Below are positions 31,079 through 54,455 of a stretch of 64,000 nucleotides of DNA, piece by piece. Made by a program: the position numbers and the translations under genes. Within the stretch, counting starts at the first letter, position 1. Each line of letters opens with the position of its first letter. Origin of the DNA: Candidatus Poribacteria bacterium (GTDB lineage Bacteria; Poribacteria; WGA-4E; WGA-3G); assembly GCA_965197475.1 (NCBI GenBank), contig CBDANF010000003.1:288001-352000 (forward strand). Direction: 5' to 3'. The notes beneath the pieces are model-generated. The model was not told the origin of the DNA. It searched no databases and saw nothing but the letters and a program-made list of their open reading frames with translations.

Positions 31079-31636
31079 ATGTTCAAGGAATTAAAAAAGA
31101 TAAGCGTTGTGCTTGTGTTATTGGCATGTTTTATTGGATGCGGCGACGTTGACCCAACTCCGGTGTCACCTCCAGTTTATTTGGCAATTAACCAGGTTTT
31201 AAAACGGTGGCGAGAAGGTTATGAAACTGAAGATATAGAGACTTATATGAGTGCTTACTGGTCGCAAGGTTTCCGATACGTCTCAGACTGGGGAACAGAC
31301 GGCGATAAAACTGATGATCTCATATTTGATGATATTCGAGACGAACGTGATTCTGCAATTCATGTCTTTAGCCAATTTCAGGATATTGAAATAGAACTTT
31401 CTATTCCTCCCGAAATAGCCATGAATAAAGATGGCACGCAAGCCGAAGTCCGAAATCATTACCGAATCCAAGGCTTTGTGGCAGATGGCGAATCACTTGA
31501 AGGCGGATTTACGGGGTGGTTCGCGGAAGGCGACAACCTGTTTATCTTTGAAAAAAGAGATGACGAATGGCGCATCATTGAATGGTATGATGAGGCTTTC
31601 AATGATGAAGAAATTCGCATTGCTAATAACCTATAG
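31079..31636 (+). CDS. Lipoprotein with NTF2/SnoaL-like domain
   Basis: Lipobox 'LACFIG-C'; 'W..GYETEDIETYMSAY'; 'FEKRDDEWRIIEW'. Confidence 0.75.
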   Translation: MFKELKKISVVLVLLACFIGCGDVDPTPVSPPVYLAINQVLKRWREGYETEDIETYMSAYWSQGFRYVSDWGTDGDKTDDLIFDDIRDERDSAIHVFSQFQDIEIELSIPPEIAMNKDGTQAEVRNHYRIQGFVADGESLEGGFTGWFAEGDNLFIFEKRDDEWRIIEWYDEAFNDEEIRIANNL

Positions 31637-31689
31637 CTTGGTCAATTTTAAAACATTCAGAATAAATTATCCAAACTATAGTTAAATCA

Positions 31690-31723
31690 CAAGGTATCTC
31701 ATAAATTTTTATGAGATACCTTG
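31690..31723 (+). terminator. Hairpin / putative terminator
   Basis: caaggtatctcat ... atgagataccttg followed by a T-rich tract. Confidence 0.6.
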
Positions 31724-31885
31724 ATTCTTTTTAGCAGATAGGTTATGCTTTAAACAGATTGATTGCAGTGACACAGTTGGAAGAAATTCATCTTACCTGA
31801 TCACATACCAAGTTGGCATTATCTGTTAATTTTTGTAAAAAATTTAATATGAGGACGCATAACATATAAAATAGTGAAAAAAATC

Positions 31886-31998
31886 TCGACTCTTTTTTGC
31901 AAATTTGATACACTTTATAACAATTGATTGCAATGGTACGTGGTTAAGAGGGTTATCCACTACTTTCTGCAGTCCCATTCGTTAAATAAAACCCTTTT
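31886..31998 (+). promoter_or_regulatory. Promoter plus putative structured 5' leader RNA (pseudoknot)
   Basis: TCGACT-17-TACACT, then stems GATTGCA/TGCAGTC and GTGG/CCAC; loop AAGAGGGTT complementary to AACCCTTTT; homologous to 44629-44737. Confidence 0.5.
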
Positions 31999-32051
31999 GT
32001 TTAATTTCCGAAATGCACATGACAGTGCAATTTTCAAGGAGGATTAAAACA

Positions 32052-32798
32052 ATGCGTAAACAATTAGAGATAATTCTTACCGCTCTGTTTCCTATAATGG
32101 TTTTGGCAATAGGTTATTTTGTTGTTTCTTCAAAAGTTCAAGTGCAGGCTAATCAGACAACATTCTATCCCGCAGAAGCAGGTCCTTATTATGATGATCC
32201 TGGTGTAGACGGAACGTATTTCGGCGTTGAAATTAATTCTGACGACTTGTGCGATGTGCAAAATGGCTTTAACATTGCAAGTACAACGGAAGCTGCCAGT
32301 ATCCGTCGTATCCGTGCCGCAAATGGCAATCTTGGAATTCGTTGGAGTCGAACACAGGATTGGCGTTTTGGTGATGTTACGCCTTGGGGTGGTGACTCTG
32401 CCTACATAATTTATACTGATGATATGGGATGGGGTGAGGTATACGACCCTGAGAAAACAGGCATAACTGGTTTTCCTTGGGAAGGAAGCGAAAGCCATGA
32501 TCGATATGTCTATGAAGGTAAACAATATATATTTACTTTTGCCGTAGTAACAGGATATGAGCGTTTAACACATAATAATATAAAGTATGTCTGTCCAAGG
32601 TACTATAAATCTGTTTATAATATTATATATTCTTGTAGTGCTAAAGCGACCCATTGGGCCGATGGCACATTTAGGGAAGTTCGCAAACACCAATTTGGTC
32701 CTATAGAACTTCGTATTCCTGGAGACAGTAGTTCAGCGGCTCGACTTGTAGACGAAGATGGCTTTCGTGAATGGTTCCCTTGCATAGAGTTAGACTAA
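32052..32798 (+). CDS. Secreted Cys/Trp-rich protein, paralog family B (copy 1)
   Basis: GGAGG RBS; signal MRKQLEIILTALFP...; motifs EAGPYY..PG..G.YFG.EI, W...Q.W.F...TPWGG, TGFPW.G, CP.YY and C-terminal W..C. Confidence 0.85.
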   Translation: MRKQLEIILTALFPIMVLAIGYFVVSSKVQVQANQTTFYPAEAGPYYDDPGVDGTYFGVEINSDDLCDVQNGFNIASTTEAASIRRIRAANGNLGIRWSRTQDWRFGDVTPWGGDSAYIIYTDDMGWGEVYDPEKTGITGFPWEGSESHDRYVYEGKQYIFTFAVVTGYERLTHNNIKYVCPRYYKSVYNIIYSCSAKATHWADGTFREVRKHQFGPIELRIPGDSSSAARLVDEDGFREWFPCIELD

Positions 32799-33067
32799 TG
32801 CATCTCAAAGTCATCAGATTCCGATGTTTATCAGTGTTTACTTGTTATTTGTTCCTGAAAATACTCGTTGAGAGTAGATAAGATGTGTCTTTGTCCAGAT
32901 ATTTCAAGTCGTATTTGATGAATTATTTTACGTATCAAACGACTTGGATGTTGTATCAAGAGATAAATTAATAGTTTATGCCTAAGTTTGCAGAGACACC
33001 ATGTCGTTTCTCCAAACTTATTGATGATAACTTCAAAATTGTGCAAATTATCACGGAGGATAAAAAA

Positions 33068-33769
33068 ATGCGTAAACAATTAGAGATAATTCTTACCGCT
33101 CTGTTTCCTGTAATGGTTTTGGCAGTAGGTTTTTTTGTCGTTTCTTCAAAAGCAGAATTGCGTAATAATGAAACAGCCATTCCTGAAGAGGCAGGTCCTT
33201 TTTATAGATACCCTGGTGTAGATGGAGAATATTTCGGAGCTGAAATTTATTTTAACGTTATGTGCGATGTTTTTAATGGCTTTGAAATTGTCTCGGCATT
33301 TGAAAATGCCACTGTCTCTGCTTCGGATATCGCTGGTGCAGTTAGTTGGGATAAAGTGCAGAATTGGAGATTTAACGGAGATACGCCGTGGGGCGGTCAC
33401 TTTGCCATAATTAGTGCTGATATAACTATCAGGTGGTCAGAGATCCGTACAGGGTTTCCTTGGAGTGGACACCAGGGCTCTGTGCGAGTCATTGATGATG
33501 GTGAACAAGTTATATACGACAGTGGCACTGTAATAGGATGGGAGCAGTTTACGGACCCAAATGAGGCAAAACACATCTGTCCTATGTCCTACTTTCACAC
33601 GTTGGATAATAAATTATTTTGTGTAGATAAGAGTTTTGAATTGGGCGAAATGATAATAATAGGAGAAGAAGGATTTGGCGATCCAGTGTTAGTTGATCCT
33701 GAAGAAGGTATATATAGTCGGAAGGTAGTAGATATAGGCAGATGGATCGATTGCAAAAAGTTAAATTAA
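33068..33769 (+). CDS. Secreted Cys/Trp-rich protein, paralog family B (copy 2)
   Basis: Near-identical signal peptide to copy 1 and the same motifs. Confidence 0.85.
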   Translation: MRKQLEIILTALFPVMVLAVGFFVVSSKAELRNNETAIPEEAGPFYRYPGVDGEYFGAEIYFNVMCDVFNGFEIVSAFENATVSASDIAGAVSWDKVQNWRFNGDTPWGGHFAIISADITIRWSEIRTGFPWSGHQGSVRVIDDGEQVIYDSGTVIGWEQFTDPNEAKHICPMSYFHTLDNKLFCVDKSFELGEMIIIGEEGFGDPVLVDPEEGIYSRKVVDIGRWIDCKKLN

Positions 33770-33918: not shown

Positions 33919-33996
33919 GATGCCAATCAATAAGTAGCAACTTGTGTTATTTATTTTACAATGTTAAAAGAAGGTTCTAACAGAGAGGTTATCTTT

Positions 33997-34830
33997 ATGC
34001 AGGTTAAAACTATAAAAGCTCTGTGTTGGTTTCTGTATATCTTCACTTTTGCAGTAGACCGGCGAAAGAGCACTATAAAAATTGTTTTTGGAGTTGTTTT
34101 ATTGAGTGCTTTGACAACTGGTAGTGGTTATACTGGAGTCTGGAAAGATGATTTTGATGACATAGCCCTCAATGGTTGGGAACGTATTGTTGAGAAAAAT
34201 CCTTGGTTGGCAGACTGGGAAGTTTCCCCATTTACTATTGGACGCCTTCTTGCAGTAATACAGAAACCAGAACAGGAGCAGGGAACAGCTGCAGATTTTC
34301 TACACTGGAATGTCCACCAATTTCAACTTGACAAGATAACAGTGGTAGGTGATGAAGTCCGTTACACGCCTGTTCCAAATAATCCGCGTGGTGAACTTTG
34401 CTTATTCCTCGGTAAACGACAACCTTCGCCTGACTTCGCAGAAGGTTATATTTTCAGTCCTGAAAAGACAACAAGAATACAGTTTACCGAAAACGGCGTT
34501 TACAAGAAGGGTGAAGTGAAAGAGGATTATGCTCTAATGTTTCGACTAACTTCTGAGCATTTAAAGGTTGTTTTTGAGGCCGGAAAGTTTCAACTCTGGA
34601 CGCAAGACCTTCTAATTACAGAATTTGTTGACGACGATATTCCCATGATTGATGTTGTTGGTTTAATCAGCGTATGTGAACTTTTAGGGAAATGGTTTGA
34701 TGGGACTATCTCAACCTTTTCAATTTCTGGGCAAGGTATCCCTACCAATAATTCTTTTGATGTGCAGTTGGAAAACACGCAATTGACTACAACTTGGGGG
34801 AAGTTGAAAGATCTTAAGCAAGCTCAATAG
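33997..34830 (+). CDS. Secreted putative lectin/jelly-roll protein with TTWG C-terminal tail (family C)
   Basis: Extended signal; 'VWKDDFDD...GW'; ends 'TQLTTTWGKLK'. Confidence 0.8.
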   Translation: MQVKTIKALCWFLYIFTFAVDRRKSTIKIVFGVVLLSALTTGSGYTGVWKDDFDDIALNGWERIVEKNPWLADWEVSPFTIGRLLAVIQKPEQEQGTAADFLHWNVHQFQLDKITVVGDEVRYTPVPNNPRGELCLFLGKRQPSPDFAEGYIFSPEKTTRIQFTENGVYKKGEVKEDYALMFRLTSEHLKVVFEAGKFQLWTQDLLITEFVDDDIPMIDVVGLISVCELLGKWFDGTISTFSISGQGIPTNNSFDVQLENTQLTTTWGKLKDLKQAQ

Positions 34831-34882: not shown

Positions 34883-37807
34883 ATGGACTTTGCATACATG
34901 CGGAAGCTCAGTAAACATCGGTTCAAACCTTCTATTTTACTTGTTGTGCTTACTATCATGTTAAGCACTTCGCTTTTTCTTTGTGTTTTTATTCGAACAG
35001 CGAATTATCCCCGTCTAGAAGAAACATATCTACTTGGTACTGACTCCTATCGTTTTCTTCGTCAAGCCGATCTGATTGTTTCTCAAGGACATTTGCCAGA
35101 AGTAGATACGCAACGATGGCAATTAGAAGGGAGAGATTTATCTACCTCGCCCACTCTCTTTTCTTATGTTCTTGCTTACGCTTATTGTCTTCTGCACTGG
35201 ATTTTTGCGGACATCAGTCTCTACAAGGTTGCTGTGTCCGCACCTATTGTGTGCTATTCGCTTTGTCTGTTGGCACTCTACGTTCTATGGAAGCATATTT
35301 TTGATACGCCTATCGCTCTTCTCGCTGTCAATTTTACCGCTATTTTCCCATCCTTAAATCTGCATCGTTCCGCCGCTGGTTTTGTGGACAGAGATGCTTT
35401 CGTCCTATTGTTGTGGTTGGTTATGTTCCTGTTCTACTTGAAGGCAGAATCTGGTATCTCTAAAACAGATTCATCTGCTGACATCACCCAGTCTTCCCCT
35501 CTGGTAAAGGGGATAAAGAGGAGTTCCGTATGTAGCAAATGGTCGATTTTCTTTTCTGCAGCGATATCGGGAATTGTCGGCGGATTGATCGCACTTTCTT
35601 GGGAGGGGGTAGGCCTTGCAATATCTATTCTTTCTATCTGGATCGGTGTCCGTGTGCTGCGGGGAGGTTTTTCTCGTCAAAGTGCGTTGGTTTATGTTAT
35701 CTGGTATCTCTGCTTCACCGTCCTTGTTTTCACATTTACGCGTGCCTATCACAACATCTGGGTTCCTTATGCTTTTTTGACAATTGTCATTCCAACTATT
35801 ACCCTTTTCTGTACCCTCACATTTTTTGGAGAGGAGAATTCAAAAACTACCAAAGCAGAAAAACCCGTTTCATTATGGAAACGTTTGCTGGAATTCTCAA
35901 GGTCCAGCAATATCCATAGATGCCTTTTCGGTTGCGTTATCACTACCTTCCTGTTGGCGGGGTTTGCTCTGTTGCAATCACCTGATATTGGTGAAACATT
36001 TCGTCGACTGTTTGACAATTTTGTCTCACCATTGGGGCAAAGCCGCCTTATGCGGACTGTTTCTGAACTTTTTGACTTAAGCGGAATCAGGTTTCTCAGT
36101 AGGTATTCAGTCATAGCTCTGGCGGCAATGGCAGGTTGTGGGGTCCTAGTTTACAATTTCTTTTCAAAAGAACGCGTTATTTTTCGGTTAACTCTAATTG
36201 GTTTTGAAATCGCGCTTGGTGGAACCCTTCTCTCCCTTTTCCTTACAAATTCGGATGTCTCTTTCAATATTTTTGGTTTTTCTTTTTTGATAAGTGGAAT
36301 TATAATAGGAATAGCATATATCCTTCGAACAGGAGATAATCTTGGAAATAATAAATATCTCTTACTGTTAATATGGATGTTTATTGGACTCGCCAGCAGC
36401 CGTGGTGCTGAACGATACCTCTTTTTTATTGATCCTGTGTTTGCTGTCTTCGTAAGTTTGCTGATTTTTACGGTGCTGCGCAGATGTATGAGGGAGCAAA
36501 TTGAAAATGATTCGTCTGATAAGACTGCAGCAAACGGTTCTGCTATCCAAATAGGGCCTGCAGTAAGAAATGTCCACACAGAATTGTGTGTGATAAGTCT
36601 TATCGTGGCTTCTGAACTATATATCGGATATCGTCTATCTGATGTAGATAGTTTCATAAGGTGGATATTTCTTGGCATGTCAATACCTTGTGGACTCTTC
36701 GGAGTTTTGCTGCTATACAAAATTGCGATGCTAAAAATAACCCACCTCCAAAGGTTTGGCTGCCTCGCGATCGTGTTTATTCTCATTCTTTTCACAAGTT
36801 CAGATGTTTTTTCTGTAGGTGGCGTTTTCAACCCCGCACCCTACCCGCTGCATAAAGGATTTGTCCGCGCAAGTACCGAGGCTGTAAGTAAAACAGCAGT
36901 TCCTCGTTCTCCGAAATTACAGAAGCATTTGGCTAATATAGCGGAGTATACCGATGAAGACGCGGTTATTGCCGCGTGGTGGGATTACGGAAGTAAAGTG
37001 AATTGGTTTACGAAACGTGCAACCGTTGTTGACGAGTACCACTACATTCCTTATTGGATATTTTTGACAGCACGACATGTCTTCAGTGGTATATCTTCTA
37101 CTGAAGCACTTGCATTTTTAAAAACACATAATGTAACGCATCTGTTGATAACGACAAACGAACTCCTTAAACTTGATACCGTTACGTATACAGGGTCCGA
37201 TGAAACTTATGACCGTGGTGCAGCTGTTCATTTTCTCATGCCGGGGCGCAGCCGTGAAGTTACGCCCTCCGTACGGCAAACAGACTTTATTCCACATAGT
37301 TATCGAACTGTGGATATGCTGTCGTTAAATGGAAAGGAATACCCACCCGGCAAATGGCTGCTGCGGGGTGTTTCAATTAGATCGGATGGTGATAGTTGGG
37401 AAGCGAAGGTTCATGGTGTAACCAAAGAAGGTGAGTTTTCTCTGCCGCCAGCAGAATTTCGGGTTGGCACATTACACATCAGTCATGAGAAAAAAGGGGT
37501 TCCCGGTTCTGTGGTTGTTTTTCATAACGAAATAGGTGGAAAATTGCAAGCATTCTATCTATCAGAAGGTGCTGCACGCTTACTTTCAGTACGATTATAT
37601 CTATTTTTGGAAGAGATTCCAGGTTTTTCATTGATATATGATACGAATTCTGAAGCGCGGTGTGATCCTGAAGGGTTCAGGCTCTGGAAAATTGATTATC
37701 CCGAAGCAATCCAACCCGATCCGAAATATCGGCAGCACGATTTTCCAAGCACTAAAAAGAAGTTGAAAAAATCTTGGGAACGTGGTAAGTTTTATAGTGT
37801 TCAGTAG
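34883..37807 (+). CDS. STT3/AglB/PglB-family oligosaccharyltransferase
   Basis: Multi-TM N-terminus; 'GTDSYRFLR', 'GFVDRD', 'TVSE' (TIxE-like), canonical 'AAWWDYG'. Confidence 0.88.
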   Translation: MDFAYMRKLSKHRFKPSILLVVLTIMLSTSLFLCVFIRTANYPRLEETYLLGTDSYRFLRQADLIVSQGHLPEVDTQRWQLEGRDLSTSPTLFSYVLAYAYCLLHWIFADISLYKVAVSAPIVCYSLCLLALYVLWKHIFDTPIALLAVNFTAIFPSLNLHRSAAGFVDRDAFVLLLWLVMFLFYLKAESGISKTDSSADITQSSPLVKGIKRSSVCSKWSIFFSAAISGIVGGLIALSWEGVGLAISILSIWIGVRVLRGGFSRQSALVYVIWYLCFTVLVFTFTRAYHNIWVPYAFLTIVIPTITLFCTLTFFGEENSKTTKAEKPVSLWKRLLEFSRSSNIHRCLFGCVITTFLLAGFALLQSPDIGETFRRLFDNFVSPLGQSRLMRTVSELFDLSGIRFLSRYSVIALAAMAGCGVLVYNFFSKERVIFRLTLIGFEIALGGTLLSLFLTNSDVSFNIFGFSFLISGIIIGIAYILRTGDNLGNNKYLLLLIWMFIGLASSRGAERYLFFIDPVFAVFVSLLIFTVLRRCMREQIENDSSDKTAANGSAIQIGPAVRNVHTELCVISLIVASELYIGYRLSDVDSFIRWIFLGMSIPCGLFGVLLLYKIAMLKITHLQRFGCLAIVFILILFTSSDVFSVGGVFNPAPYPLHKGFVRASTEAVSKTAVPRSPKLQKHLANIAEYTDEDAVIAAWWDYGSKVNWFTKRATVVDEYHYIPYWIFLTARHVFSGISSTEALAFLKTHNVTHLLITTNELLKLDTVTYTGSDETYDRGAAVHFLMPGRSREVTPSVRQTDFIPHSYRTVDMLSLNGKEYPPGKWLLRGVSIRSDGDSWEAKVHGVTKEGEFSLPPAEFRVGTLHISHEKKGVPGSVVVFHNEIGGKLQAFYLSEGAARLLSVRLYLFLEEIPGFSLIYDTNSEARCDPEGFRLWKIDYPEAIQPDPKYRQHDFPSTKKKLKKSWERGKFYSVQ

Positions 37808-37912
37808 CAGTGGATGGATAATCTGTTTCTATAAACGCACATCTAAAAAAATAGAACGCGTCAATATTTCTTGACACAACGATGACATTAGGTAAATTTG
37901 CTTTAATTTTTA

Positions 37913-38104
37913 ACCCAAGTTGCTACCAATTAAAAATTCATCTTAATGTGTTCAATCTTTCGCTCCAGCGGAGCGATATGTTTATAGAAAAAAGTTAGTC
38001 TGTTCTTCCGCTCCAGCGGAGCGGTATGTCCAGTAACTATGAGTAGCACTTTTCTGAATATCCGCACCTATGATGTTTTCCAGGTTATAGGTGGCAACTG
38101 AGGT
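37913..38104. repeat. Palindromic intergenic element with two gctccagcggagc hairpins
   Basis: Outer agttgctacc / ggtggcaact IR; 'cgctccagcggagcg' twice. Confidence 0.55.
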
Positions 38105-38159
38105 AATTTTTAGAAGTTTAGCAACTGCATGCAACAAGGCAAGCAACTGAGGTAATATC

Positions 38160-39257
38160 ATGTCAAAACGTTCCATTATCACAACAATCATCATTCCGGT
38201 TCTGCTGATTTCTGTGCTGGTTATTGTGCTTGTTAATAACCAGCAGGAGTTCCCTGGGGAACTGGTTTTTGCCGAAAACAGAGTCAATTTCGGGACAATC
38301 CCTGAATGGGAGGGGACCGTAACACGTTCAGTGATAGCGAGAAATGAGGGAAGAAGCCCATTGCGAATAGAAAGAATTCGTGCAGGGTGTAGTTATGCAA
38401 AAATTACCGGACCAAGACTGATTCAGCCTAATGAAGAAGGAACGTTCGAAGTTGTGCTTAATCCCAAAATTGTTCCAACTGATGCAAAAGCGGCGACAGC
38501 GATCCTTTTCACAGATAGTCCAAGAACCCCACAAGTTTATCTAACAATTGTTGCTGCATCAAAGCGGTTCGCCACACTGAGTGCTGAAATTTGTGATTTC
38601 GGACAGATAATCCCTGGAACAACACATAAAAAGAAAATAAAACTATGTGTAAACGCACCACTCAATTTAGAGAAAGTCCGACTCATGCCATCAGCGCATC
38701 CAAACCTGACTTGGAAAATGTCTCCAGATCCGAATTCGGAGTGTTTCCTCATCACAATTCAATTGCAGGCACCAAAAATATGGAAACAGGGAGACACAGA
38801 AACCCGACCCTATAATGCTGAAAAACTATTTTCTTCAATACTTACCGTCGCTTTTCCAAATGAGCGAACCTTGGCGTTACCTATTACTGCGAGAATCGTG
38901 CGACCCGTGACGGTGCAACCGAAAACCCTCTCCTATGGAGCAGTGGATAAAGACGCAAACCCATCTGCCGAATTCACACTTTCTGCGAAAAAGGGTTTTA
39001 AGGTACTCAGTATTCAGGTTCCTGACTATTTGCGGGTTGCTGCGCCGGACAATTGGACGCAATCCTTGCACGCCTACAACGCGCACTCACAACAAGAAAA
39101 ACGGTACAAGGTTTTTTGGGAGGTAGCAAATTCACCTGAACTGCTGCGTCAAGAGATCCTGGTCATGACAACAGCAGAAAAGTTACCGATTACTATTCCT
39201 GTCTACGGGTTAATTCGAACCGCAAAAAATGAAACTACCAAACTAACAGAGAGGTAA
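38160..39257 (+). CDS. DUF1573 (Ig-like) membrane-anchored protein
   Basis: N-terminal TM; 'NFGTIP...RNEGRSPLRIERIRAGCSY...IQPNEEGTFEV'; repeated FG/YG Ig-like modules. Confidence 0.8.
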   Translation: MSKRSIITTIIIPVLLISVLVIVLVNNQQEFPGELVFAENRVNFGTIPEWEGTVTRSVIARNEGRSPLRIERIRAGCSYAKITGPRLIQPNEEGTFEVVLNPKIVPTDAKAATAILFTDSPRTPQVYLTIVAASKRFATLSAEICDFGQIIPGTTHKKKIKLCVNAPLNLEKVRLMPSAHPNLTWKMSPDPNSECFLITIQLQAPKIWKQGDTETRPYNAEKLFSSILTVAFPNERTLALPITARIVRPVTVQPKTLSYGAVDKDANPSAEFTLSAKKGFKVLSIQVPDYLRVAAPDNWTQSLHAYNAHSQQEKRYKVFWEVANSPELLRQEILVMTTAEKLPITIPVYGLIRTAKNETTKLTER

Positions 39258-39263
39258 ATTTTC

Positions 39264-40091: not shown

Positions 40092-40130
40092 TCAAAATCA
40101 AAACGTGTGTTTAAGATAAGGAGTTGTAAC

Positions 40131-46319: not shown

Positions 46320-46825
46320 TGCGTCTTTATCCAAAAAAATCTCAAAGCGATATACAAAACAGGTCTGAGCGCGGATTATCTCAACAAATTATCAAGGAAT
46401 CGCTAATTGTTTGTGTTTGGATCAGTTTTGGAGCCTTAACACTCTGGGGGGCGGAGGTGGCTGGACTTTTCTCTTCCACCTTCCAAATTCAGGGAAGTTC
46501 TACCTTACAAGTTGATTTCCCTGCAGTCTACCAAATTTGGAAACGTGGAGAGGCTGTTTTTGTAGACTCGCGTTCCGCAGCCAACTTCAGGCGGGGGCAT
46601 ATCCCAGATGCCGTAAATGTACCTATCAACCGCGTGCAGCAGGAATTAGATGTACTGCCAACAGACAAAGAAGTGCTTTTGATTACCTATTGCGGAAGCA
46701 TTGAATGTCCAAATGCCTATCAGTTGATGAACGTTCTATTGGGGTACGGTTACCAAAACGTAAAGTTTTTTCCGCGCGGACTGAGAGGTTGGCAGGCATT
46801 AGGACACCTACTGGAAACAGAATGA
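46319..46825 (+). CDS. Membrane-anchored rhodanese-like protein
   Basis: 'FVDSRS..F..GHIPDAVNVP', 'ITYCGSIEC', 'RGLRGW'; TGATG coupling to the upstream gene. Confidence 0.88.
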   Translation: MRLYPKKSQSDIQNRSERGLSQQIIKESLIVCVWISFGALTLWGAEVAGLFSSTFQIQGSSTLQVDFPAVYQIWKRGEAVFVDSRSAANFRRGHIPDAVNVPINRVQQELDVLPTDKEVLLITYCGSIECPNAYQLMNVLLGYGYQNVKFFPRGLRGWQALGHLLETE

Positions 46826-47316
46826 CAATTCCGTCACTGTTGGTGACAACACTCAGAATTATTCTTGGGGCGATTCTTCTGTTCGCCGGGATTGCTAAGC
46901 TTGCGAATTTCAACGCGTTTGTAACCGATGTAGCCGGTTACCAGATATTACCGACGGGATTGGCAAAGCCGATAAGTTATCTATTGGTATCGGAAGAGAT
47001 AACGTTAGGGATAGCGTTGAGCATAGGCTATTTTTCGCGAGGCGCAGGTATATTGGCATCATTTCTCTTTCTGATATTTGCGATTGCATTGGCAAATGTG
47101 TTGTGGCGAGAACTACCCGTAGCGGATTGCGGCTGTGCCAATTTTCTTTTTACTATTCTGGATTTCTTAGGGTTTTCGATTTCAACAACGCCTAATTGGA
47201 AGATGGTTTTCGTAGATATTGGGTTAGGGGTAACATGTTTTGGGATAGCTTGTTCACCGCAACTGGGATATGGTTTGGAATCTTTTATCCCAAGAATGAG
47301 ACGTAATGAAGTTTAA
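46822..47316 (+). CDS. MauE/DoxX family membrane protein
   Basis: 'LRIILGAILLFAGIAKL', 'DCGC'; ATGA overlap with the rhodanese gene. Confidence 0.88.
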   Translation: MTIPSLLVTTLRIILGAILLFAGIAKLANFNAFVTDVAGYQILPTGLAKPISYLLVSEEITLGIALSIGYFSRGAGILASFLFLIFAIALANVLWRELPVADCGCANFLFTILDFLGFSISTTPNWKMVFVDIGLGVTCFGIACSPQLGYGLESFIPRMRRNEV

Positions 47317-47369
47317 TTTACAATCTCTCCTAAATAATTCTGAAAATATTATAATTTTCAAAATTTAAG

Positions 47370-47480
47370 TTGACAAAAAATTAAATTCGCGTATAATTTA
47401 CCAAAAGTGGTGAAAAAACTGATAATTTCGCGAATTTTTTGAAAAAAGATTTGACATTTACTGAAACTTACTGTTATAAT
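47370..47480 (+). promoter_or_regulatory. Two tandem consensus sigma70 promoters
   Basis: TTGACA-16-TATAAT (47370-47397) and TTGACA-18-TATAAT (47451-47480). Confidence 0.65.
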
Positions 47481-47908
47481 ACCTATATTAAGTCGTATAT
47501 ATAAATATAAATTTAGGCGTGAAAAAGAGAAGCGAGACTTTAAACGTCGCAATCATGTTTTCTGATGAATGATGGAGGTTTTATCAATAGAGTAACCAAC
47601 ATTAATGAATAACCGACATGTAAATACCGCAATCCAGAAAAGATCACATCCAGATACTCGTCATTTAAGCAAGGACAGTGTTTGTGGGTTTGTATTAATT
47701 ACCCCCCCCTCACTTCACATTCGTTAATTTATTCACAGGACAAGGTCTTATTGCAGGATGGACATGCTGCAATATTTTTGTGCCCGCACGTACTTCGTCT
47801 TTCACGGAGTGTCACGTCGCGGGCTTTTGTTGTTACACATTCGGAATTTCCGATGTTTATTATCCCTGCACTGCAGATGAAACCTATAACTATTGCTTAT
47901 TTTTTGAT

Positions 47909-47937
47909 TTGACAAAATTCAGTGGAAAACGTAGAAT
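47909..47937 (+). promoter_or_regulatory. Promoter of the 48062 operon
   Basis: TTGACA-17-TAGAAT. Confidence 0.65.
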
Positions 47938-48061
47938 TGCATTAACGCTACCCGAACAACCTGTCCGAAGGACGGACACTGAAAACCAAAACGGATAGCA
48001 TTCGCAAATTCACTATTTTCCACTTATCGCCACAGAAAAATGTGGCAAGGAGATAAACAAA

Positions 48062-48919
48062 ATGAAAAGAAGATTTGTTGAATGCGCGCTATTATTAGGC
48101 ATTGTGATGTCTGTTGTCTTTTTAGCACAAACGCAAGATGGATTGGGGCACAGTAAAAATATGCACGATCCTCAATTTGATGTTGATCCGAGTGGCAACG
48201 AAGTTGGGCAAGGTAATGGTAATGATCCGAGGGGCAAAAGTTTTCATTATTCTAACGGCAGTGTTATCGGCTATGTATGGGGTAAAGGTTGGCAGTACCG
48301 AGGAGGACTGTTGAATGGAGCGACCGAAGAACAGACAAATGATCCAAACGATACTGGTCACCCAGAAGACGAAATCCATCAAATGATTTATGTCTTGCAG
48401 ATTAGAGCTGACTGCTGGGCAAGGCCTTCGTCATGTGAGGCAGAAATAAAACCGAGTCTTAAATATGTTGATGCATTGGCTCCAAGAAGACATGTTTTTG
48501 GAGGATGGGGATCAATAAGTCTTAAATTTTCCCATGTGTGTTATCATGAAGTCGTCGGAATCTGGTCTCAGCAGCAGTGTGAGGTAAGGGAGAGAGAGGA
48601 AACACTGTGGAGTGCTGGTCAATCAATTTTCATTAAGGTTACTCTCAATGAATACGCTGAGAAGAGAAGTGGGAGTTTTGGTGCATCACTTAAAGGCGTT
48701 TCTGCTTCATATTCCCACGAGTATCAAGAAAAGTATAATGATCTTCACGCACGTGGATTTGGCATAAAAGCGAAACTCAGGGGCAATCCGTATGACCCTG
48801 TGATTTATAAACAAGATAAGTATGCGGGTGCCTCCGGATATGTTCAGAGCGCAAGAACTGGTGATCTCCTGGCAGCCCGTCCTGGTGTTGACAGTCATGA
48901 ATGTCCAGGTTCACAATGA
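48062..48919 (+). CDS. Secreted Cys-containing hypothetical protein
   Basis: AAGGAG RBS; signal peptide; beta-rich C-terminal half. Confidence 0.8.
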   Translation: MKRRFVECALLLGIVMSVVFLAQTQDGLGHSKNMHDPQFDVDPSGNEVGQGNGNDPRGKSFHYSNGSVIGYVWGKGWQYRGGLLNGATEEQTNDPNDTGHPEDEIHQMIYVLQIRADCWARPSSCEAEIKPSLKYVDALAPRRHVFGGWGSISLKFSHVCYHEVVGIWSQQQCEVREREETLWSAGQSIFIKVTLNEYAEKRSGSFGASLKGVSASYSHEYQEKYNDLHARGFGIKAKLRGNPYDPVIYKQDKYAGASGYVQSARTGDLLAARPGVDSHECPGSQ

Positions 48920-49027: not shown

Positions 49028-50383
49028 ATGAAAAGACGAATGATTTTAACAACGCTGCTTTTTCTTATAATTGTCATTGGTTTTTCTGTTTACCTGAATA
49101 ATAGAAAGACAGGACAACAGTCTATCACGGAGCAGCTTTCTACGTTCAAGCAGCATGAACACATCGCACCAGATGGCACTGTCGTGAAACATCAACACAC
49201 TTACGAGGTTCCCGAACTATCCGAAGGTGTTGTGAAACCGAAACCGGTTTCCGAGTCAAGGCATCCCATCCAGCGCGCATGGGAAGCACTTGACCTCGCA
49301 GCAATTAAAAGGAAATATCAACCTTACACCGTCGCTGAAATGCAGGAAATGTGGTCGCAATCTTATATGACCAACTTTGGTCCAAATTACCCACATGAAC
49401 TTGATGAGGCATATCCACAAGAGGAATGGCTTCAACACAATTTGGAATTAGGGCAACATTTCGCAGATTTTACGGACTATGAAACAACGTTGGAGCGGCG
49501 ATATATGATGGTAGATCATCGGGACAAGTGGAAAGTTAAGGACGAAGTAGGCAGAGAGGAAATGCGTGGATACCTTGATTTGCCGTCCTACGTAGACACC
49601 TGGGAAGAGTATGAGGATGCATTCCTTAAGACACTTATCACCTCTTATCACACGTTTGTAGTGGCAACAGAGTCGGATCCTGATATTGAAGGTGGCACTG
49701 TCGGCACCGATGGCACCCTCATCCCGTTCAAGAAGAACACTGTGTATGTCCATGTTAATATAGAAAAAGGTTTTTCAACGTTCACGGGAACAGAGTTAAC
49801 CAACGACGAAGAAAATACGTTAACAATGTATGGTGTTGTCCCTGAAGGGCTAACAGTTATCTATACAGATGAGGGAGGAAAACCTTTATCATCGGATACT
49901 CCTCCGCCTACTTTCCATGCGCGGCGTATGAAGGAATTGGAACAAGCACAAACATATCTGCAACAGCAAATAACAGATCATGAAGTATTGTTAGAACTTG
50001 ATGCTATTCTCAATCCACAGGAAAAAGGAGCAGGCACTACTTCTGTACCGCATGAACATGAACATGAGCAGGAGCATGACCACACACACGAGACACTGCA
50101 ACCTCCTGATAAGGTAACGCCACAGCAGTCTAATGCAAAGCAGCCCCTGCCGCATCTGAAGATACCACCGGAACTACGCACGCCAGAAGCGATCAATCAA
50201 TGGTTTACCGAATTAGAGGTACTGCACGGTGGGCAATTGCCGAAAGATTTGCAGGCACTCCGGGAAGTTATCACTGAATTGGAGAAAATAAGACAGGAAG
50301 GTGAAGCGAAGTTGAAACCGCCACAACCGCCAGAACGTCCGGCACCGCCAGAAGGAAATTCCCCTCCTGATAAGACAGACTAA
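49028..50383 (+). CDS. Membrane-anchored His-rich hypothetical protein (family D)
   Basis: N-terminal TM; 'HEHIAPDGTVVKHQH'; 'HEHEHEQEHDHTHE'; Pro-rich tail. Confidence 0.85.
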   Translation: MKRRMILTTLLFLIIVIGFSVYLNNRKTGQQSITEQLSTFKQHEHIAPDGTVVKHQHTYEVPELSEGVVKPKPVSESRHPIQRAWEALDLAAIKRKYQPYTVAEMQEMWSQSYMTNFGPNYPHELDEAYPQEEWLQHNLELGQHFADFTDYETTLERRYMMVDHRDKWKVKDEVGREEMRGYLDLPSYVDTWEEYEDAFLKTLITSYHTFVVATESDPDIEGGTVGTDGTLIPFKKNTVYVHVNIEKGFSTFTGTELTNDEENTLTMYGVVPEGLTVIYTDEGGKPLSSDTPPPTFHARRMKELEQAQTYLQQQITDHEVLLELDAILNPQEKGAGTTSVPHEHEHEQEHDHTHETLQPPDKVTPQQSNAKQPLPHLKIPPELRTPEAINQWFTELEVLHGGQLPKDLQALREVITELEKIRQEGEAKLKPPQPPERPAPPEGNSPPDKTD

Positions 50384-50420
50384 GGGTTACCGCTTGAAGA
50401 TTCAAGCACGTGAAAACGCC

Positions 50421-51017
50421 ATGAAAAATCGAATAATTCGGGTAGTCATAGTCCTTTTCATGCTTGTTATCGTGGGCATCGTCTATCTCAGTGCTCAGAA
50501 GACAGATACGCCATCGTTGATAGACATTACTGAACAAGAACGCAACCATGAATTACGAAGTGTGAAAAAGTTTGCATGGTTTAAACATTGGGACCAACTT
50601 GACCTTGCCATTGTCAAAAGATATTATCAACGATACACCGTCGCTGAGATGCGGATAATATGGGATGAAAAAATGCATGCCAAGTCCGGTAACTTTGAAG
50701 GGAGAGAACATGCAGATGCTGTCTATCCTTGGGATACCTATCTTACGCGCCTGCTTGAATTGGGGTACCCTTTTGTTGACTTCTCAGACTATGAGAACGC
50801 CTTATATACGCGGATGTGTATACTAATTCCGACACGAACCTACTGGCATACCATCAATATATCTGCAAAAGGTGAGTATCTCAAGGTCCGCGGGTTGTCC
50901 GCTGATACAACCTGGACAACGTATGAGGAGTCATTGATAAAAAAGATCGTTGTCTGTCGTATCAATTGGTGGCGTTCAGGCGGTATAGATCCTTTTTCAG
51001 AGTGGGAATCACAGTAA
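50421..51017 (+). CDS. Membrane-anchored hypothetical protein, short paralog of 49028..50383
   Basis: Shared 'W..LDLA.+KR.YQ.YTVAEM...W' and 'LELG..F.DF.DYE..L..R'. Confidence 0.8.
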   Translation: MKNRIIRVVIVLFMLVIVGIVYLSAQKTDTPSLIDITEQERNHELRSVKKFAWFKHWDQLDLAIVKRYYQRYTVAEMRIIWDEKMHAKSGNFEGREHADAVYPWDTYLTRLLELGYPFVDFSDYENALYTRMCILIPTRTYWHTINISAKGEYLKVRGLSADTTWTTYEESLIKKIVVCRINWWRSGGIDPFSEWESQ

Positions 51018-51028
51018 TGTTTGTTCTC

Positions 51029-51150
51029 AGTCGGGAATAGGAATTCCCTCCTACGGTAGGAGCGACCGTACTCCCTCCTACGGTAGGAACGATCTCTTGA
51101 TCGCGACCTTACTCCCTCCTGCTGTAGGAGCGATCTCCTGATCGCAACCG
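51029..51150. repeat. Cluster of REP-like units
   Basis: tccctcctacggtaggagcga-type unit three times plus gcgatc..gatcgc hairpins. Confidence 0.75.
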
Positions 51151-51220
51151 GACTCACAAATTTGGGACACAGCACTCTTTACTTGTGGAGGCGGTTACAA
51201 CGAAAATAAAGTCAGTAAAA

Positions 51221-51973
51221 ATGAAACATTCGTTAGCATTTATCGTTATCCTTGCAATCAGTTTCGGAATAACTCTGTTTCTTGTCCTTGGTCGTGGACG
51301 CGGTTCTGATGCACTAAACACATCTAAGACTTCTACACATCAAACAGGGGTTATTATAAACAACACTGTAACGCAGGAACGCAACCTCCCAAAACAGAGT
51401 CCCATCCAGAAGGGTGACGATAAGGTTCTTGTTTCTAACAATGAAGAAGACTTCTACCGCACCATTATTGAAAATAACATATTTCGACCACTTAACTGGA
51501 AACCGACACGACAAGACCCGGCGTATATATTGATCGGCACTCTCGTACCTTCAGATGATAGTACTGCTACCGCATACATTAGTGAACGGAAGACAGATCA
51601 GTTTTACACCGTAAAGGTTGGTGAAAAAATAGGTAATGCTACTGTTACAGCGATTCTCCCAAAGCATGTCACGTTGGACAAAGAAGGCAAGGCGTTAAAC
51701 CTCTATATGGCATCTGCCTCACTTCTAAGCCGAACCCGTAGTGGCAGAAGTTCATCCTACCGCCCATCACCTCAGCCACAAGTCACATCCCAGAATCGCA
51801 ATTCGCAAACACGCAGCACAACGGACAAAGAACGCCAAGCGTGGCGAGATACACAAAAAGAACGGATAGCAGAATTGAAAGAGATGGCAGAAAAGCTCCG
51901 CGCCGTTTCAGAGGAAGAACGCAGCCGAATGCAGGAACATCTTGAACAACGTGCAAGCAGAAACTCCCAATAA
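51221..51973 (+). CDS. GspC/PilP-like (T2SS HR-domain) membrane protein
   Basis: TM, then 'IIENNIFRPL...LIGTLV...AYI...VKVGEKIGNATVTAI....VTL..EGK'. Confidence 0.7.
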   Translation: MKHSLAFIVILAISFGITLFLVLGRGRGSDALNTSKTSTHQTGVIINNTVTQERNLPKQSPIQKGDDKVLVSNNEEDFYRTIIENNIFRPLNWKPTRQDPAYILIGTLVPSDDSTATAYISERKTDQFYTVKVGEKIGNATVTAILPKHVTLDKEGKALNLYMASASLLSRTRSGRSSSYRPSPQPQVTSQNRNSQTRSTTDKERQAWRDTQKERIAELKEMAEKLRAVSEEERSRMQEHLEQRASRNSQ

Positions 51974-51995
51974 GACTAACGTGAAAACTTATCAA

Positions 51996-54455
51996 ATGAA
52001 CCACTCCTTACTGCCCCGTATCGGTGCATCACTCATACTCCTCACGCTTTTATTTTTATCGTTTTGGATTCGGGTACAAGGTGTAGAACGTATTCCGGAT
52101 GGGCAGTTTAGTGCTAACGATGCCTACCTTTATTATTGGAATGCACAAAGAATTGCTGAACTCGGATATCTCCCTGCTATTGACGAACACCGATGGCTGC
52201 CTCAAGGTAGAGACGTAAGCCAAACGCTTGCCTTTTACTCCTACGTGCTCGCTTACACGCATAGAGTAACAAAGTTATTCTTTTACAAGGTCTCCCTCTA
52301 CCACATCCAACTTTATGCCCCCGCTGTTTGTTTCACACTTGCCCTTGGAATTTTAGCACTTTTTCTTACCCGCACAGTCGGATTTCTATTTGCTTTCATT
52401 GTCACCGTGCTGCTGGCAACGTTGCCGGGCTGTGTGGATAGAAGTGCCGCGGGCTTTAGTGATAGAGACGCGTGGTGTTGGTTGTTAGGCACTCTCGCTG
52501 TCGTTTCCTACCTATGGAAAGAGCAGATACCTTTAAATCCCCCTGACAAAGGGGGTTGCGTCCCTGTCAAAGAAGGAAAAGGGCTAAAAAATTGGCGTAG
52601 GTACACTGCTACCGGACTCTGCGGGTTTATTGTTTTTTTAGGTGGACTCTCTTGGGAAGGGTTCGGTGTATTTCTTTTAGTTATCCTCTTTATAGAACTT
52701 TGGAAGTTCTGCACCTCCGACACAGAAGAGCATCTGCTTGAGTATGCAATATGGGTGGCAATGTTCGTGCCGTGGCTTTATCTCACTTCACCTGCATATC
52801 GGGGCGGTCAGGTTTTCACTACACATCTCACTGCCCTTGTGTTGGTGCCACCGCTTGTCGTCCTTGGACTTCAAGGGGTAAGATATATCCTGCTTCATTT
52901 CTTTAAACCGCTCCAAATCCATGCCAGAAAAATAGCAGGACTCCTAACACTTCTTGCGATTGTGGGCGCGGGATTCTACGTTTTTTCCCAAGTTGGGACC
53001 TTTGCGAGTACCACGGTCCCGTTTAGTGAAAACCGATTGATGCAGCAGACAACCGAATTAGAAAACCCAAGTTTTATGTATTGGGTGTCTCGATATGGGG
53101 GTGTGTTTGTGTTGGGCAGCATTGGCTTAGTAGGCACATGCTTTCATTTGTGGAAATGGGAAGGGGTTCCTTTGGCAGTCTCCCTTTCCTTATTTGCACT
53201 CACAACCTTCTTGCGAGGTCCTCTCATCGGTTTCATAAGTGCCTCTCTATGTGATGCGTTGTTTCTCGCTGCGTTAGGACTTGCTATCATCGGCATCGGA
53301 TTCGCATGTTTCCGAAAAGAAGTAGGACAAAATGAACGTGCCTTCATCGCAACTGTAGCGTGGTTCATCTTATGGGTAGGTTTGTCGAAAAGTGCAGTAC
53401 GTTATGACTTCTTTATCGGAATCCCACTGGCAATTGGAACAGCATCTATTTTGGCACGTTCACCTACGTCTGGCAAACCCGTTCACATTAGTGGTAGAGA
53501 CATTCACCCTAAATTAGTAACCGCGGCGTTTGCAGTCGGCATGTTGGTACTTCTTCTATTTTGGGCACCTGTTGGTGGCTATGCCAATAGAGCAATCCGA
53601 GTTGCCAGTGAACGTCCACCGGTACCTGGACACAGCAGTTTGCTTCAGGCATACACTTGGATGAAAACCGAACTCCGCGCAGATACAACGGTGATGGCTG
53701 CAAACTGGGGGTACGGCAGCCAACTTAACGTCCTTGGCAGTGTAAAAACTATTGTTGACCAAGACCATTTTATACAGCACTGGATACATCTCTACTACCG
53801 ACACGTTTATTGTGCCCAATCTGAACAAGAAGCTTTAGAATTCCTCAAAACACACCACGCAACACATCTGATGATCACAGCTTCTGATCTAACCATCAAC
53901 GCAGGTGGGATGTCATACGTCGGCAGCGATGCTGATTTAGACAGACACTTCGACTTTTACGCACTTGATGCAATGCCCACCGCACCCGGAACACAATACA
54001 CTCTTGCACCGAAAATATATCAAAGACCTCCGCGTTTCATGCCACAAACCACATTAGATACCATTGACATCCGCGGCACCGAAATTGAAAACTTATCCGT
54101 AACCGCACGGTTCAAAACAGGCGATATATCACACATCCCTTATGTCGCTTATGTCGGCAACCAGCGGATCACACCAAAAGAAAAAACGGATACAGAAAAC
54201 GGCAGTCTTGTTATACTCTTCGACGTACAAAAGAAACTTCTATACAGTTTTTACCTTCCAGCCATCGGATGGAACAGTCTTGCAGTCAAATTGTTCATAC
54301 GTGGCGAACACACGGAGGCATTTGTAAACGTTCACACTATTACCCCAAAAGGTATAGATATTCCTCCGGAAGTCAAAATATGGAAAATCAACTATCCACC
54401 TGACATCAAAAAGAACCAGAAATATCTTGAAACAGAACCACCCGAAGGTTATTGA
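51996..54455 (+). CDS. Second STT3/AglB-family oligosaccharyltransferase-like protein (degenerate WWDYG)
   Basis: Paralog of 34883..37807; 'ANDAYLYY', 'AAGFSDRDA', 'QTTE', 'AANWGYG', 'FLKTHHATHL', 'KIWKINYP'. Confidence 0.85.
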   Translation: MNHSLLPRIGASLILLTLLFLSFWIRVQGVERIPDGQFSANDAYLYYWNAQRIAELGYLPAIDEHRWLPQGRDVSQTLAFYSYVLAYTHRVTKLFFYKVSLYHIQLYAPAVCFTLALGILALFLTRTVGFLFAFIVTVLLATLPGCVDRSAAGFSDRDAWCWLLGTLAVVSYLWKEQIPLNPPDKGGCVPVKEGKGLKNWRRYTATGLCGFIVFLGGLSWEGFGVFLLVILFIELWKFCTSDTEEHLLEYAIWVAMFVPWLYLTSPAYRGGQVFTTHLTALVLVPPLVVLGLQGVRYILLHFFKPLQIHARKIAGLLTLLAIVGAGFYVFSQVGTFASTTVPFSENRLMQQTTELENPSFMYWVSRYGGVFVLGSIGLVGTCFHLWKWEGVPLAVSLSLFALTTFLRGPLIGFISASLCDALFLAALGLAIIGIGFACFRKEVGQNERAFIATVAWFILWVGLSKSAVRYDFFIGIPLAIGTASILARSPTSGKPVHISGRDIHPKLVTAAFAVGMLVLLLFWAPVGGYANRAIRVASERPPVPGHSSLLQAYTWMKTELRADTTVMAANWGYGSQLNVLGSVKTIVDQDHFIQHWIHLYYRHVYCAQSEQEALEFLKTHHATHLMITASDLTINAGGMSYVGSDADLDRHFDFYALDAMPTAPGTQYTLAPKIYQRPPRFMPQTTLDTIDIRGTEIENLSVTARFKTGDISHIPYVAYVGNQRITPKEKTDTENGSLVILFDVQKKLLYSFYLPAIGWNSLAVKLFIRGEHTEAFVNVHTITPKGIDIPPEVKIWKINYPPDIKKNQKYLETEPPEGY

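Follow-up and report, generated by a model that had tools for sequence, protein, structure and literature searches.

Oligosaccharyltransferases (OSTs) of the STT3/AglB family (PF02516, which we take to be GT66) are marked by a WWDYG motif in the periplasmic domain, acidic motifs in external loops 1 and 2, and a T/S-I/V-x-E motif in external loop 5 (EL5). Structural work on PglB and AglB has shown that the +2 Ser/Thr of the acceptor sequon (N-x-S/T) is bound by WWD through hydrogen bonds. The eukaryotic multi-subunit OST features thioredoxin-like Ost3/Ost6 subunits and the lectin malectin. Bacterial N-glycosylation occurs chiefly in Campylobacterota and in some Desulfobacterota, with one PglB encoded within a pgl locus. 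PMC3703281 describes three AglB paralogs in Archaeoglobus fulgidus. A literature search (supplements excluded) found no paper joining Poribacteria with STT3, AglB, PglB, oligosaccharyltransferase or GT66; in passages of PMC11839104, Poribacteria and oligosaccharyltransferase-type terms occur unrelated to each other, and a term search of PMC3909097 returned neither 'glycosylation' nor 'STT3'. Here, we analyzed a Poribacteria locus that encodes two STT3-family proteins, named STT3a and STT3b, within a 64-kb stretch of DNA (the window). The genome carrying the window is labeled G000, and the G, L and C labels used below denote relatives' genomes, fetched loci and contigs, respectively. A preliminary description had read the locus as a single 23-kb system for maturation, glycosylation and export. 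We instead read it as three juxtaposed Poribacteria-specific envelope units, two of them built around STT3-family (GT-C) enzymes with predicted glycan-transfer functions, a reading that we regard as evenly poised between right and wrong. The three units themselves, their distribution among relatives and the motif states of their enzymes were observed directly.

Window positions 31058-54455 contain 20 open reading frames (ORFs) of 169-974 aa, 19 on the + strand and an IS1 transposase gene on the - strand (Table 1). An anchor or signal segment is present at every N-terminus of the cluster proteins (translations judged by eye), and gene spacing within blocks is tight, with overlaps or gaps of 7-53 bp. 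Unit 1, an old core that in most relatives has no STT3 gene next to it, has the order CarboxypepD_reg-C4-B3-C5-rhodanese-MauE (40965-47316). Unit 2, an accessory block, has the order B1-B2-C1-STT3a-DUF1573-C2-C3 (genes at 32013-40916) and fills the interval 31637-40964 between a SnoaL-like gene and the core. Unit 3 (48062-54455) has the order X-D1-D2-GspC-like-STT3b and is one copy of a multi-copy paralogous cassette. The genes claimed in the preliminary description were all found where it had placed them, with Pfam or NCBIfam matches to STT3 (twice), DUF1573, CarboxypepD_reg, rhodanese, MauE/DoxX and IS1, and within-genome BLAST returned its counts of three family-B, five family-C and two family-D paralogs. 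It had also stated that glycan-synthesis and flippase genes are lacking; in agreement, family scans detected no glycosyltransferase or flippase family in the remaining 26 ORFs of the window, and no glycan-synthesis or flippase family among all 46.

STT3a looks like a credible N-oligosaccharyltransferase of the STT3/AglB type, because its motifs align with those of yeast STT3, its sequence matches are to STT3 and AglB, and its best model is archaeo_STT3. Its Pfam STT3 (PF02516) score of 55.2 bits is above the curated cut-off of 24.5. The segment AAWWDYGSKV aligns to AAWWDYGYQI of yeast STT3, with WWDYG kept in all four aligned STT3a orthologues, and RSAAGFVDRD aligns to RSVAGSYDNE of the yeast protein (the RSxAGxxDxD/E loop). 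STT3a also contains GTDSY at the place of the first acidic motif and TVSE at that of the T/S-I/V-x-E motif of EL5. In a PDB sequence search, the matches of STT3a and STT3b were eukaryotic STT3 and archaeal AglB C-terminal domains, with no chain of PglB among those at E<=1. The best NCBIfam model was archaeo_STT3, with scores of 68 and 52 bits for the two proteins vs a cut-off of 450. NCBI names the relatives of both STT3a and STT3b-type proteins 'hypothetical protein'.

STT3b scores 41.2 bits against Pfam STT3 vs the same cut-off of 24.5, this being the only GT-C family matched, and its C-terminal region is still alignable to the STT3 periplasmic domain. Across an alignment of 17 STT3 proteins from Poribacteria, every member retains D-R-D, and WWDYG is found in the four STT3a orthologues only; the other 13, STT3b-type or otherwise distinct from STT3a, read [NSHD]W[GESD][YHN]G in its place. 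The STT3b clade has NW[G/S/E]YG. Residues D60, D174, D176, E372, W589 and G592 are invariant in 11 aligned STT3b-type proteins. The earlier proposal of two STT3 oligosaccharyltransferases is thus borne out as far as both proteins carry an STT3 domain above cut-off and STT3a keeps WWDYG, and fails for the WWDYG motif of STT3b, which reads NWGYG. As the catalytic carboxylates are kept and WWD is varied, it is likely, judging from these motifs, that this clade is active with a changed acceptor rule. At E<=1e-40, the clade was detected in 94 of the 111 genomes of family f1 and in 0/47 genomes of the other three families, with several matches per f1 genome and at least seven in the richest.

The order B1-B2-C1-STT3a-DUF1573-C2-C3 was classified as an accessory block because the core order exists without STT3a and STT3a is far rarer than family B. 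In G022 and G021, which belong to the same genus and lack STT3a, the order is SnoaL-CarboxypepD_reg-C4-B3-C5-rhodanese-MauE, with SnoaL directly beside CarboxypepD_reg; genera g13 and g9 also show the CarboxypepD_reg-C4-B3-C5 order. Among the genomes of the order, 112/159 have family B (f1, 109/111; f2, 0/11; f3, 2/29; f4, 0/7), and 14/159 have STT3a at E<=1e-60, including 10/111 in the family. By genus, STT3a occurs in 7/39 genomes of g1 plus G000, 2/2 of g11, 1/1 of g12, 1/1 of g14, 2/20 of g6 and 0/65 of g13. The suggestion that families B and C are tied to an OST is contradicted by these counts, with family B in 109 genomes of the family and STT3a in 10 of the same 111.

The converse association was confirmed: STT3a is accompanied by families B and C, DUF1573 and CarboxypepD_reg. 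Where STT3a is 48-81% identical, B and/or C together with DUF1573 and/or CarboxypepD_reg adjoin it in 12/12 loci examined (G000, G003, G020, G016, G015, G013, G093, G092, G091, G061 and the records of L035 and L038). These loci span at least four genera, two families, at least four gene orders and about 50% protein divergence. The gene order of the window is found in G003, G020 and G016. In G015 the order is B-C1-STT3a-DUF1573-CarboxypepD_reg-rhodanese-MauE-B-C-C-C-C, in G092 and G091 it is CarboxypepD_reg-C-B-C-DUF1573-STT3a, and in G061, a member of another family, it is CarboxypepD_reg-B-C-C-C-rhodanese-MauE-DUF1573-C-STT3a; the STT3a locus of G093 also differs in order from the window. Since membership has been kept through rearrangement, these comparisons argue for a functional tie between accessory block and core and for an old STT3a association that was later lost in places. 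In G007 (L102, G007:C1:4764001-4776000), C1, small STT3a remnants, DUF1573, C2, C3, CarboxypepD_reg, rhodanese and MauE are followed directly by an intact STT3b-type gene, so that MauE precedes such a gene here as well as in the window. Stops within the STT3a matches of G054 and G091 were not counted, as they may sit at match ends. In addition, tandem STT3a-like genes (25-29% identity) were observed in another family of the order at L031/L032 (G032:C1:1585875-1597008), with matches in three adjacent frames, two of them within the fetched locus; no B, C, DUF1573 or CarboxypepD_reg neighbours were found there.

The genes X-D1-D2-GspC-like-STT3b form a separate cassette, because in G003 MauE runs straight into a sulfotransferase gene (84% identical to window 54550-55278, the gene after STT3b here) and because the cassette recurs elsewhere. 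The 60 kb surrounding STT3a contain no X, D, GspC-like or STT3b gene in either G003 or G020, so that 47317-54500 represents an indel relative to these two genomes; its left junction carries a repeat with up to 15 genomic copies. Homologues of X are present in 14/40 genomes of the genus, and every listed X match that was compared lies about 3-4 kb upstream of an STT3b-type match. The order X-D1-(D2)-GspC-like-STT3b was recovered by tblastn in 9 of 10 fetched loci from six genomes, which had been chosen because X lies near STT3b (G003, two; G007, three; G009; G021; G013, two; G050), at 25-80% identity to the window proteins; in the tenth locus (L057), X was seen by blastp of its ORFs only. In these cassettes, the GspC-like gene either adjoins the start of STT3b or overlaps it. 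A complex prediction of STT3b residues 20-837 with GspC-like residues 1-180 gave a score of 0.00, which speaks neither for nor against binding. A CDP-alcohol phosphatidyltransferase gene was seen after an STT3b-type gene at three loci (L044:1985-2563, -; L045:5086-5700, +; L101:728-1333, -), two in G000 and one in G007, the last with a GspC-like gene in between.

Eleven of the 20 ORFs had no family in the Pfam and NCBIfam scan, save one sub-threshold HypB-prefix match for D1 (18.4 bits vs a cut-off of 35). Family B (32013, 32978 and 44759) comprises proteins of 30-40% identity with an N-terminal anchor and four conserved Cys; within-genome BLAST found no other copy, and the family has 36 representative clusters among 1.84 billion. 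The AlphaFold2 (AF2) model of B1 (pLDDT 77.6) shows long antiparallel strands, with the best Foldseek match in PDB at E 0.014 and a TM of about 0.1. In a wide VIA-align search, Z did not exceed 4.8 and the alignments lay on the N-terminal helix (1-42), so that the beta domain was barely tested by it; no PDB match was convincing. The best ESM Atlas score for B1 residues 45-261 was 0.76, a lead-level score, and a word-based homologue search with B1 returned three proteins; for X, the ESM Atlas gave no usable match. Kinship between families B and X was rejected by a profile-profile comparison (probability 5%). Family C is lectin-like at the level of fold only, as far as can be told from a model: the AF2 model of C4 (30-sequence alignment, pLDDT 81.8) is a beta jelly roll that Foldseek matched to legume lectins and other ConA-like proteins (E 5.6e-7, probability 1.00, TM 0.40-0.56), in keeping with the lectin-like character first proposed for these proteins. 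Residues 215-230 of this model, which correspond to a C-terminal TTWG tail, have pLDDT <50, and PF06439 (3-keto-disaccharide hydrolase) matched weakly in 4/30 family-C members. A second small group of family-C-like genes with a TTWG tail was noticed at L043:2595-5857 (G000:C3:2992595-2995857), one of them fused behind a WD40 propeller (562 aa).

The D proteins share an anchored helical domain of no known family; the 40 proteins that a word-based homologue search with D1 returned are all unnamed and lack a Pfam family. Protein X begins with a signal peptide; across 11 aligned members its D-P-R motif is invariant and two Cys are nearly so, and in a nearby (S/T)-x-N-G stretch the Asn is present in 8/11. 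The GspC-like proteins conserve the motif FYxxIIxNNIFRPLNWKP and a small beta domain; the window member scores 25.9 bits against Pfam T2SSC (PF11356; cut-off 27) and 33.7 against NCBIfam GspC_delta (NF041515; cut-off 150). It had been called a lone protein with a role in export. It is in fact one of 11 paralogs in the genome, has no PDZ match (Pfam) and no type II secretion system (T2SS) gene in the 64-kb window, and the single secretin gene of the genome lies elsewhere (G000:C2:571734-572261), so that neither part of that claim could be upheld. The core redox proteins score above their Pfam cut-offs (rhodanese, 50.5 bits vs 22.2; MauE, 69.7 vs 27).

The TTWG tail is not special to this cluster. 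It is a C-terminal tag of roughly the form (V/A)(E/D)Pxx K L(A/T)TTW(G/A)x(L/I)K followed by 0-6 residues, and five copies are located in the window (34780-34830, 40050-40091, 40870-40916, 43750-43793 and 46270-46319). Genome-wide, the pattern lies in the last 16 residues of 96/18,761 ORFs (>=60 aa), with only nine internal matches in 2.85 million residues, and its carriers include Laminin_G_3, PD40 and WD40 proteins (Pfam) as well as leucine-rich-repeat-, YWTD- and zincin-like proteins (by eye). The corresponding DNA pattern occurs 5-92 times per genome in 41/41 relatives, vs 0-2 for a reversed control; five g5 genomes of f2, which have no STT3, contain 47-92 matches, and the sixth f2 genome (G025) only five. 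It is present in nearly all of 121 phylum-wide genomes, with two g19 genomes and G025 near the control level. By its sequence pattern, the tail is a phylum-wide C-terminal tag that is independent of STT3, since it is abundant in STT3-less genomes and phylum-wide; a role as an STT3 target was rejected on the basis of the five g5 genomes and other STT3-less genomes. It was also compared with the sorting domain found at the C-terminus in type IX secretion (TIGR04183), which none of the five family-C proteins matched at E<=0.01; the genome has 57 TIGR04183 matches (e.g., C2:828346-828594), and for the few TTWG ORFs compared by eye the match lies in a different open frame. One 2194-aa open frame (C3:1990729-1994694 among the cited sites) contains five sub-threshold pieces of the SprA/Sov translocon model, the best at 65.8 bits vs a cut-off of 200. 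Kamke et al. 2014 (PMC3909097) reported TIGR04183-type tails and no Por secretion genes. The papers that a literature search returned for 'TTWG' were all unrelated.

Under the three-unit reading, STT3a would most likely work on the outer face of the inner membrane, where exported proteins would receive on Asn a lipid-linked glycan whose synthesis is encoded elsewhere in the genome, and its constant neighbours would be substrates or glycan-binding or folding partners. STT3b would probably still transfer a glycan, to an acceptor other than the standard N-x-S/T sequon. Here, the candidate acceptor that stands out most is the fast-evolving secreted X of the same cassette, and the anchored D and GspC-like proteins may be accessory subunits. 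As part of the STT3-independent core, the rhodanese-MauE/DoxX pair would serve the disulfide-bearing B proteins or general thiol chemistry. A bolder version, which we consider a long shot, is a multi-paralog protein-glycosylation scheme in this family of Poribacteria without known counterpart elsewhere in bacteria. Each STT3b, with a variable motif in place of the Ser/Thr-reading WWD, would serve its own X at a non-canonical site, with D and GspC-HR-like proteins as subunits, and STT3a with its lectin-fold, Ig-like and thiol-redox neighbours would form a bacterial counterpart of the multi-subunit OST for glycan-dependent handling of envelope proteins. One candidate STT3b site in X would then be the conserved Asn of (S/T)-x-N-G just after the invariant DPR.

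A number of observations weigh against the three-unit reading. The preliminary description had taken sequons as a signature of glycosylation and had named beforehand, as an outcome that would speak against it, a frequency equal to background; this is the outcome obtained, the pooled N-x-S/T density being 0.58 per 100 aa in 14 cluster proteins vs 0.54 in the 1185 ORFs of this genome that a crude call marked as exported. D/E-x-N-x-S/T occurs in 0/14 cluster proteins, sequons at two family-B positions are kept in only 3/10 members, and the NGS sequon of X in only 2/11 (comparison among orthologues 65-88% identical is uninformative on conservation). A split STT3a in G016, in G020 and in the record of L035, together with the remnants in G007, suggests that the gene is dispensable; STT3a-like genes of genus g6 (G032 and G077, 25-33% identity) have none of these neighbours; and the core is present without STT3a in about 100 genomes. 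Most compared relatives belong to one family, and the shared gene order is therefore partly common descent. Of 10 unselected STT3b-type loci of G007 and G022 (tblastn), three have D-like and/or GspC-like neighbours, one lies beside the core and six have none detectable; two of the three are ordered D-D2-STT3b-GspC-like, one of which is followed by a CDP-alcohol phosphatidyltransferase gene. In G000, the full cassette is present at one of five STT3b-type loci, and the other four have other neighbours, three of them being truncated or split. Moreover, glycosylation by STT3a and STT3b is something that we infer from their sequences.

If the stretch were one integrated 23-kb maturation, glycosylation and export system, with B and C as dedicated OST substrates and the GspC-like protein in export, it would be natural that all genes are co-oriented and encode exported or membrane-bound proteins, that this genome has its two STT3 genes within a single stretch, and that an STT3b-type gene follows MauE in G007 too. 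The X-to-STT3b part is, however, missing here in G003 and G020 and located elsewhere in relatives, and MauE directly precedes the sulfotransferase orthologue in G003, so that the single module resolves into three units; B and C occur without STT3a in most genomes, sequons are at background, and the GspC-like protein lacks PDZ and T2SS neighbours and has 10 paralogs. This reading, already weakened, now seems very improbable. At the opposite end, there may be no functional link at all, the locus being a rearrangement-prone island of lineage-specific exported-protein genes in which the STT3s are general-purpose or decaying OSTs. The IS1 insertion and the multi-copy repeats at block boundaries fit such an island, as do the patchy occurrence of STT3a (14/159) and its breakage or deletion in several genomes, the independence of the core from STT3a, background sequon density and the several other contexts of STT3b-type genes. 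An island of unrelated genes does not readily account for the recurrence of the same families beside STT3a in 12/12 loci despite at least four gene orders and about 50% divergence, including G061 of another family, nor for the X-D-GspC-like-STT3b order kept between paralogous cassettes with identities as low as 25-50%, nor for the abutment or overlap of the GspC-like gene with the STT3b start. We consider it unlikely, while granting it serious weight.

It may also be that, in the STT3b clade and possibly in STT3a, protein N-glycosylation is not the activity, and that these GT-C enzymes act instead on another residue type, a lipid or a polysaccharide. The loss of WWD throughout the STT3b clade with retention of the acidic motifs is compatible with this, and so are the three STT3b-type genes followed by a CDP-alcohol phosphatidyltransferase gene (two in G000, one in G007) and the lack of a conserved N-x-S/T in X. 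Yet Pfam STT3 is the only GT-C family matched, above cut-off, similarity to the periplasmic domain of STT3 persists in the C-terminal region, and we know of no non-OST function for the STT3 family; this alternative appears improbable. The three-unit reading, with two STT3-centered units whose enzymes probably differ in acceptor rule, was retained.

Table 1. Features of the locus and its flank in the 64-kb window (window coordinates).
Feature	Position	Strand	Evidence or remark
SnoaL-like lipoprotein (flank, outside cassettes)	31058..31636	+	Pfam SnoaL_4 E 0.0013, under cut-off
B1, family B paralog: N-terminal membrane anchor, beta-rich ectodomain, 4 conserved Cys	32013..32798	+	No Pfam/NCBIfam family
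B2, family B paralog	32978..33769	+	40% identity to B1
C1, family C paralog, ConA-like fold family, TTWG tail	33961..34830	+	Directly upstream of STT3a in most STT3a loci
STT3a, 974 aa, candidate STT3/AglB-type oligosaccharyltransferase	34883..37807	+	Pfam STT3 E 1.1e-14; WWDYG (residues 699-703), RSAAGFVDRD, TVSE
Intergenic repeat element, CGCTCCAGCGGAGCG palindromes	37910..38107	.	blastn vs genome: up to 12 copies
DUF1573 / HYDIN-VesB-like Ig-domain protein, N-terminal anchor	38160..39257	+	Pfam DUF1573 E 7.8e-10; adjoins STT3a in other genomes
C2, family C paralog	39264..40091	+	Within-genome BLAST
C3, family C paralog	40107..40916	+	Within-genome BLAST
Secreted CarboxypepD_reg (transthyretin-like) repeat protein, first core gene	40965..43076	+	Pfam E 4.7e-50, 5 stretches
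C4, family C paralog: ConA-like jelly roll, disordered TTWG tail (predicted)	43101..43793	+	AF2 + Foldseek
IS1-family transposase, between C4 and B3	43810..44574	-	NCBIfam transpos_IS1 E 2.7e-57
B3, family B paralog, widely conserved member	44759..45502	+	Orthologues 70-89% identical
C5, family C paralog	45549..46319	+	Within-genome BLAST; core synteny
Rhodanese-domain protein, membrane-anchored	46316..46825	+	Pfam Rhodanese E 2.9e-13
MauE/DoxX membrane protein, last core gene	46705..47316	+	Pfam MauE E 3.7e-19
Junction core / STT3b cassette, with repeat 47695-47837	47317..48061	.	Repeat: up to 15 genome copies
Protein X, opening the STT3b cassette: secreted, with invariant DPR motif, outside known families	48062..48919	+	
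D1, family D: N-terminal anchor, conserved helical domain, His- and Pro-rich tail	49028..50383	+	
D2, family D, short form	50394..51017	+	
GspC-HR-like anchored protein; as called, overlaps STT3b start	51185..51973	+	T2SSC 25.9 bits, under cut-off 27
STT3b, 837 aa, divergent STT3-family GT-C enzyme; acidic motifs kept, NWGYG for WWDYG	51942..54455	+	Pfam STT3 E 2.1e-10

The IS1 element extends over about 43798-44738, has up to 29 copies in G000 and is absent from the same spot in G003, where C4 and B3 are only 22 bp apart. The repeats at 37910-38107, 47695-47837 and 51030-51150 are intergenic and contain short GC-rich palindromes, e.g., CGCTCCAGCGGAGCG and CTCCTACGGTAGGAG; in contigs from metagenomes and RNA libraries, they stand out by very high depth and numerous loose ends. 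Three sponge metatranscriptome runs of one study include short contigs, with at most one differing letter, that cover C2, CarboxypepD_reg, B3, C5, rhodanese/MauE, the MauE-X gap, IS1 and STT3b, and no contig of the same runs was found over STT3a 34883-37427 or from X to D1; because these libraries can contain DNA, the contigs show neither expression nor silence. Upstream of the cluster and divergent from it, an extracytoplasmic function (ECF)-type sigma factor gene (30071-30730) is followed by three ORFs without family matches (27534-30730, -); this sigma factor could be a regulator of exported-protein genes. Further upstream, a Pup-proteasome set is encoded at 12563-20273 (-), comprising two genes of the Pup-ligase family and genes for a proteasome subunit and for a proteasomal AAA ATPase that has OB domains, and an ORF without an assigned family (14962-15756) adjoins the proteasome subunit gene.

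An uncultured sponge-symbiont phylum thus encodes an STT3/AglB-like enzyme with all hallmark motifs, along with a lineage-specific second STT3 clade in which the acceptor-reading motif is altered. If the enzymes are active, the known range of bacterial protein glycosylation would be widened, and Poribacteria may glycosylate envelope proteins in an unusual multi-copy way. Such natural OST variants, possibly with new acceptor specificity, would be useful for glycoengineering, and glycosylated surface proteins would become players at the sponge-symbiont interface.

Among the described systems, archaeal AglB and eukaryotic STT3 are approached by the Pfam STT3 domain in both Poribacteria proteins, the motif alignment of STT3a with yeast STT3, archaeo_STT3 as the best model, and a length of 837-974 aa with many hydrophobic segments in the N-terminal half. 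Differences lie in the bacterial host, NCBIfam scores far under cut-off, an STT3b clade without WWD, many paralogs per genome, and neighbours that belong to families without a known role in N-glycosylation. Like the Campylobacter PglB/pgl system, the locus would rely on a single-subunit STT3-family enzyme in a Gram-negative-type envelope, with exported, presumed periplasmic acceptors; unlike it, there is no PglB match at E<=1, no glycan-synthesis or flippase gene in the window, and D/E-x-N-x-S/T in 0/14 neighbours. Several STT3-family paralogs in one genome are also a feature of Archaeoglobus fulgidus, for which PMC3703281 gives three, vs at least seven STT3b-type matches in the richest Poribacteria genome, placed in conserved cassettes with unrelated accessory genes. 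The resemblance to the eukaryotic multi-subunit OST lies at most in an STT3 encoded with thiol-redox (rhodanese, MauE/DoxX), beta-sandwich and lectin-fold proteins; the accessory proteins here are without sequence kinship to its subunits, any complex would be hypothetical, and rhodanese and MauE belong to the STT3a-independent core. The GspC-like protein shares with T2SS GspC and the PilP HR domain (PF11356) an N-terminal anchor, a small beta domain and weak T2SSC similarity (25.9 bits), and differs in its score below cut-off, the lack of PDZ and of adjacent T2SS genes, the number of paralogs (11 vs one secretin) and its partner gene, which is STT3 and not a secretin. In comparison with all of these systems, the enzyme family itself is known, and the novelty lies in the phylum, in a WWD-less clade that has expanded, and in two conserved partner-gene sets of unknown families.

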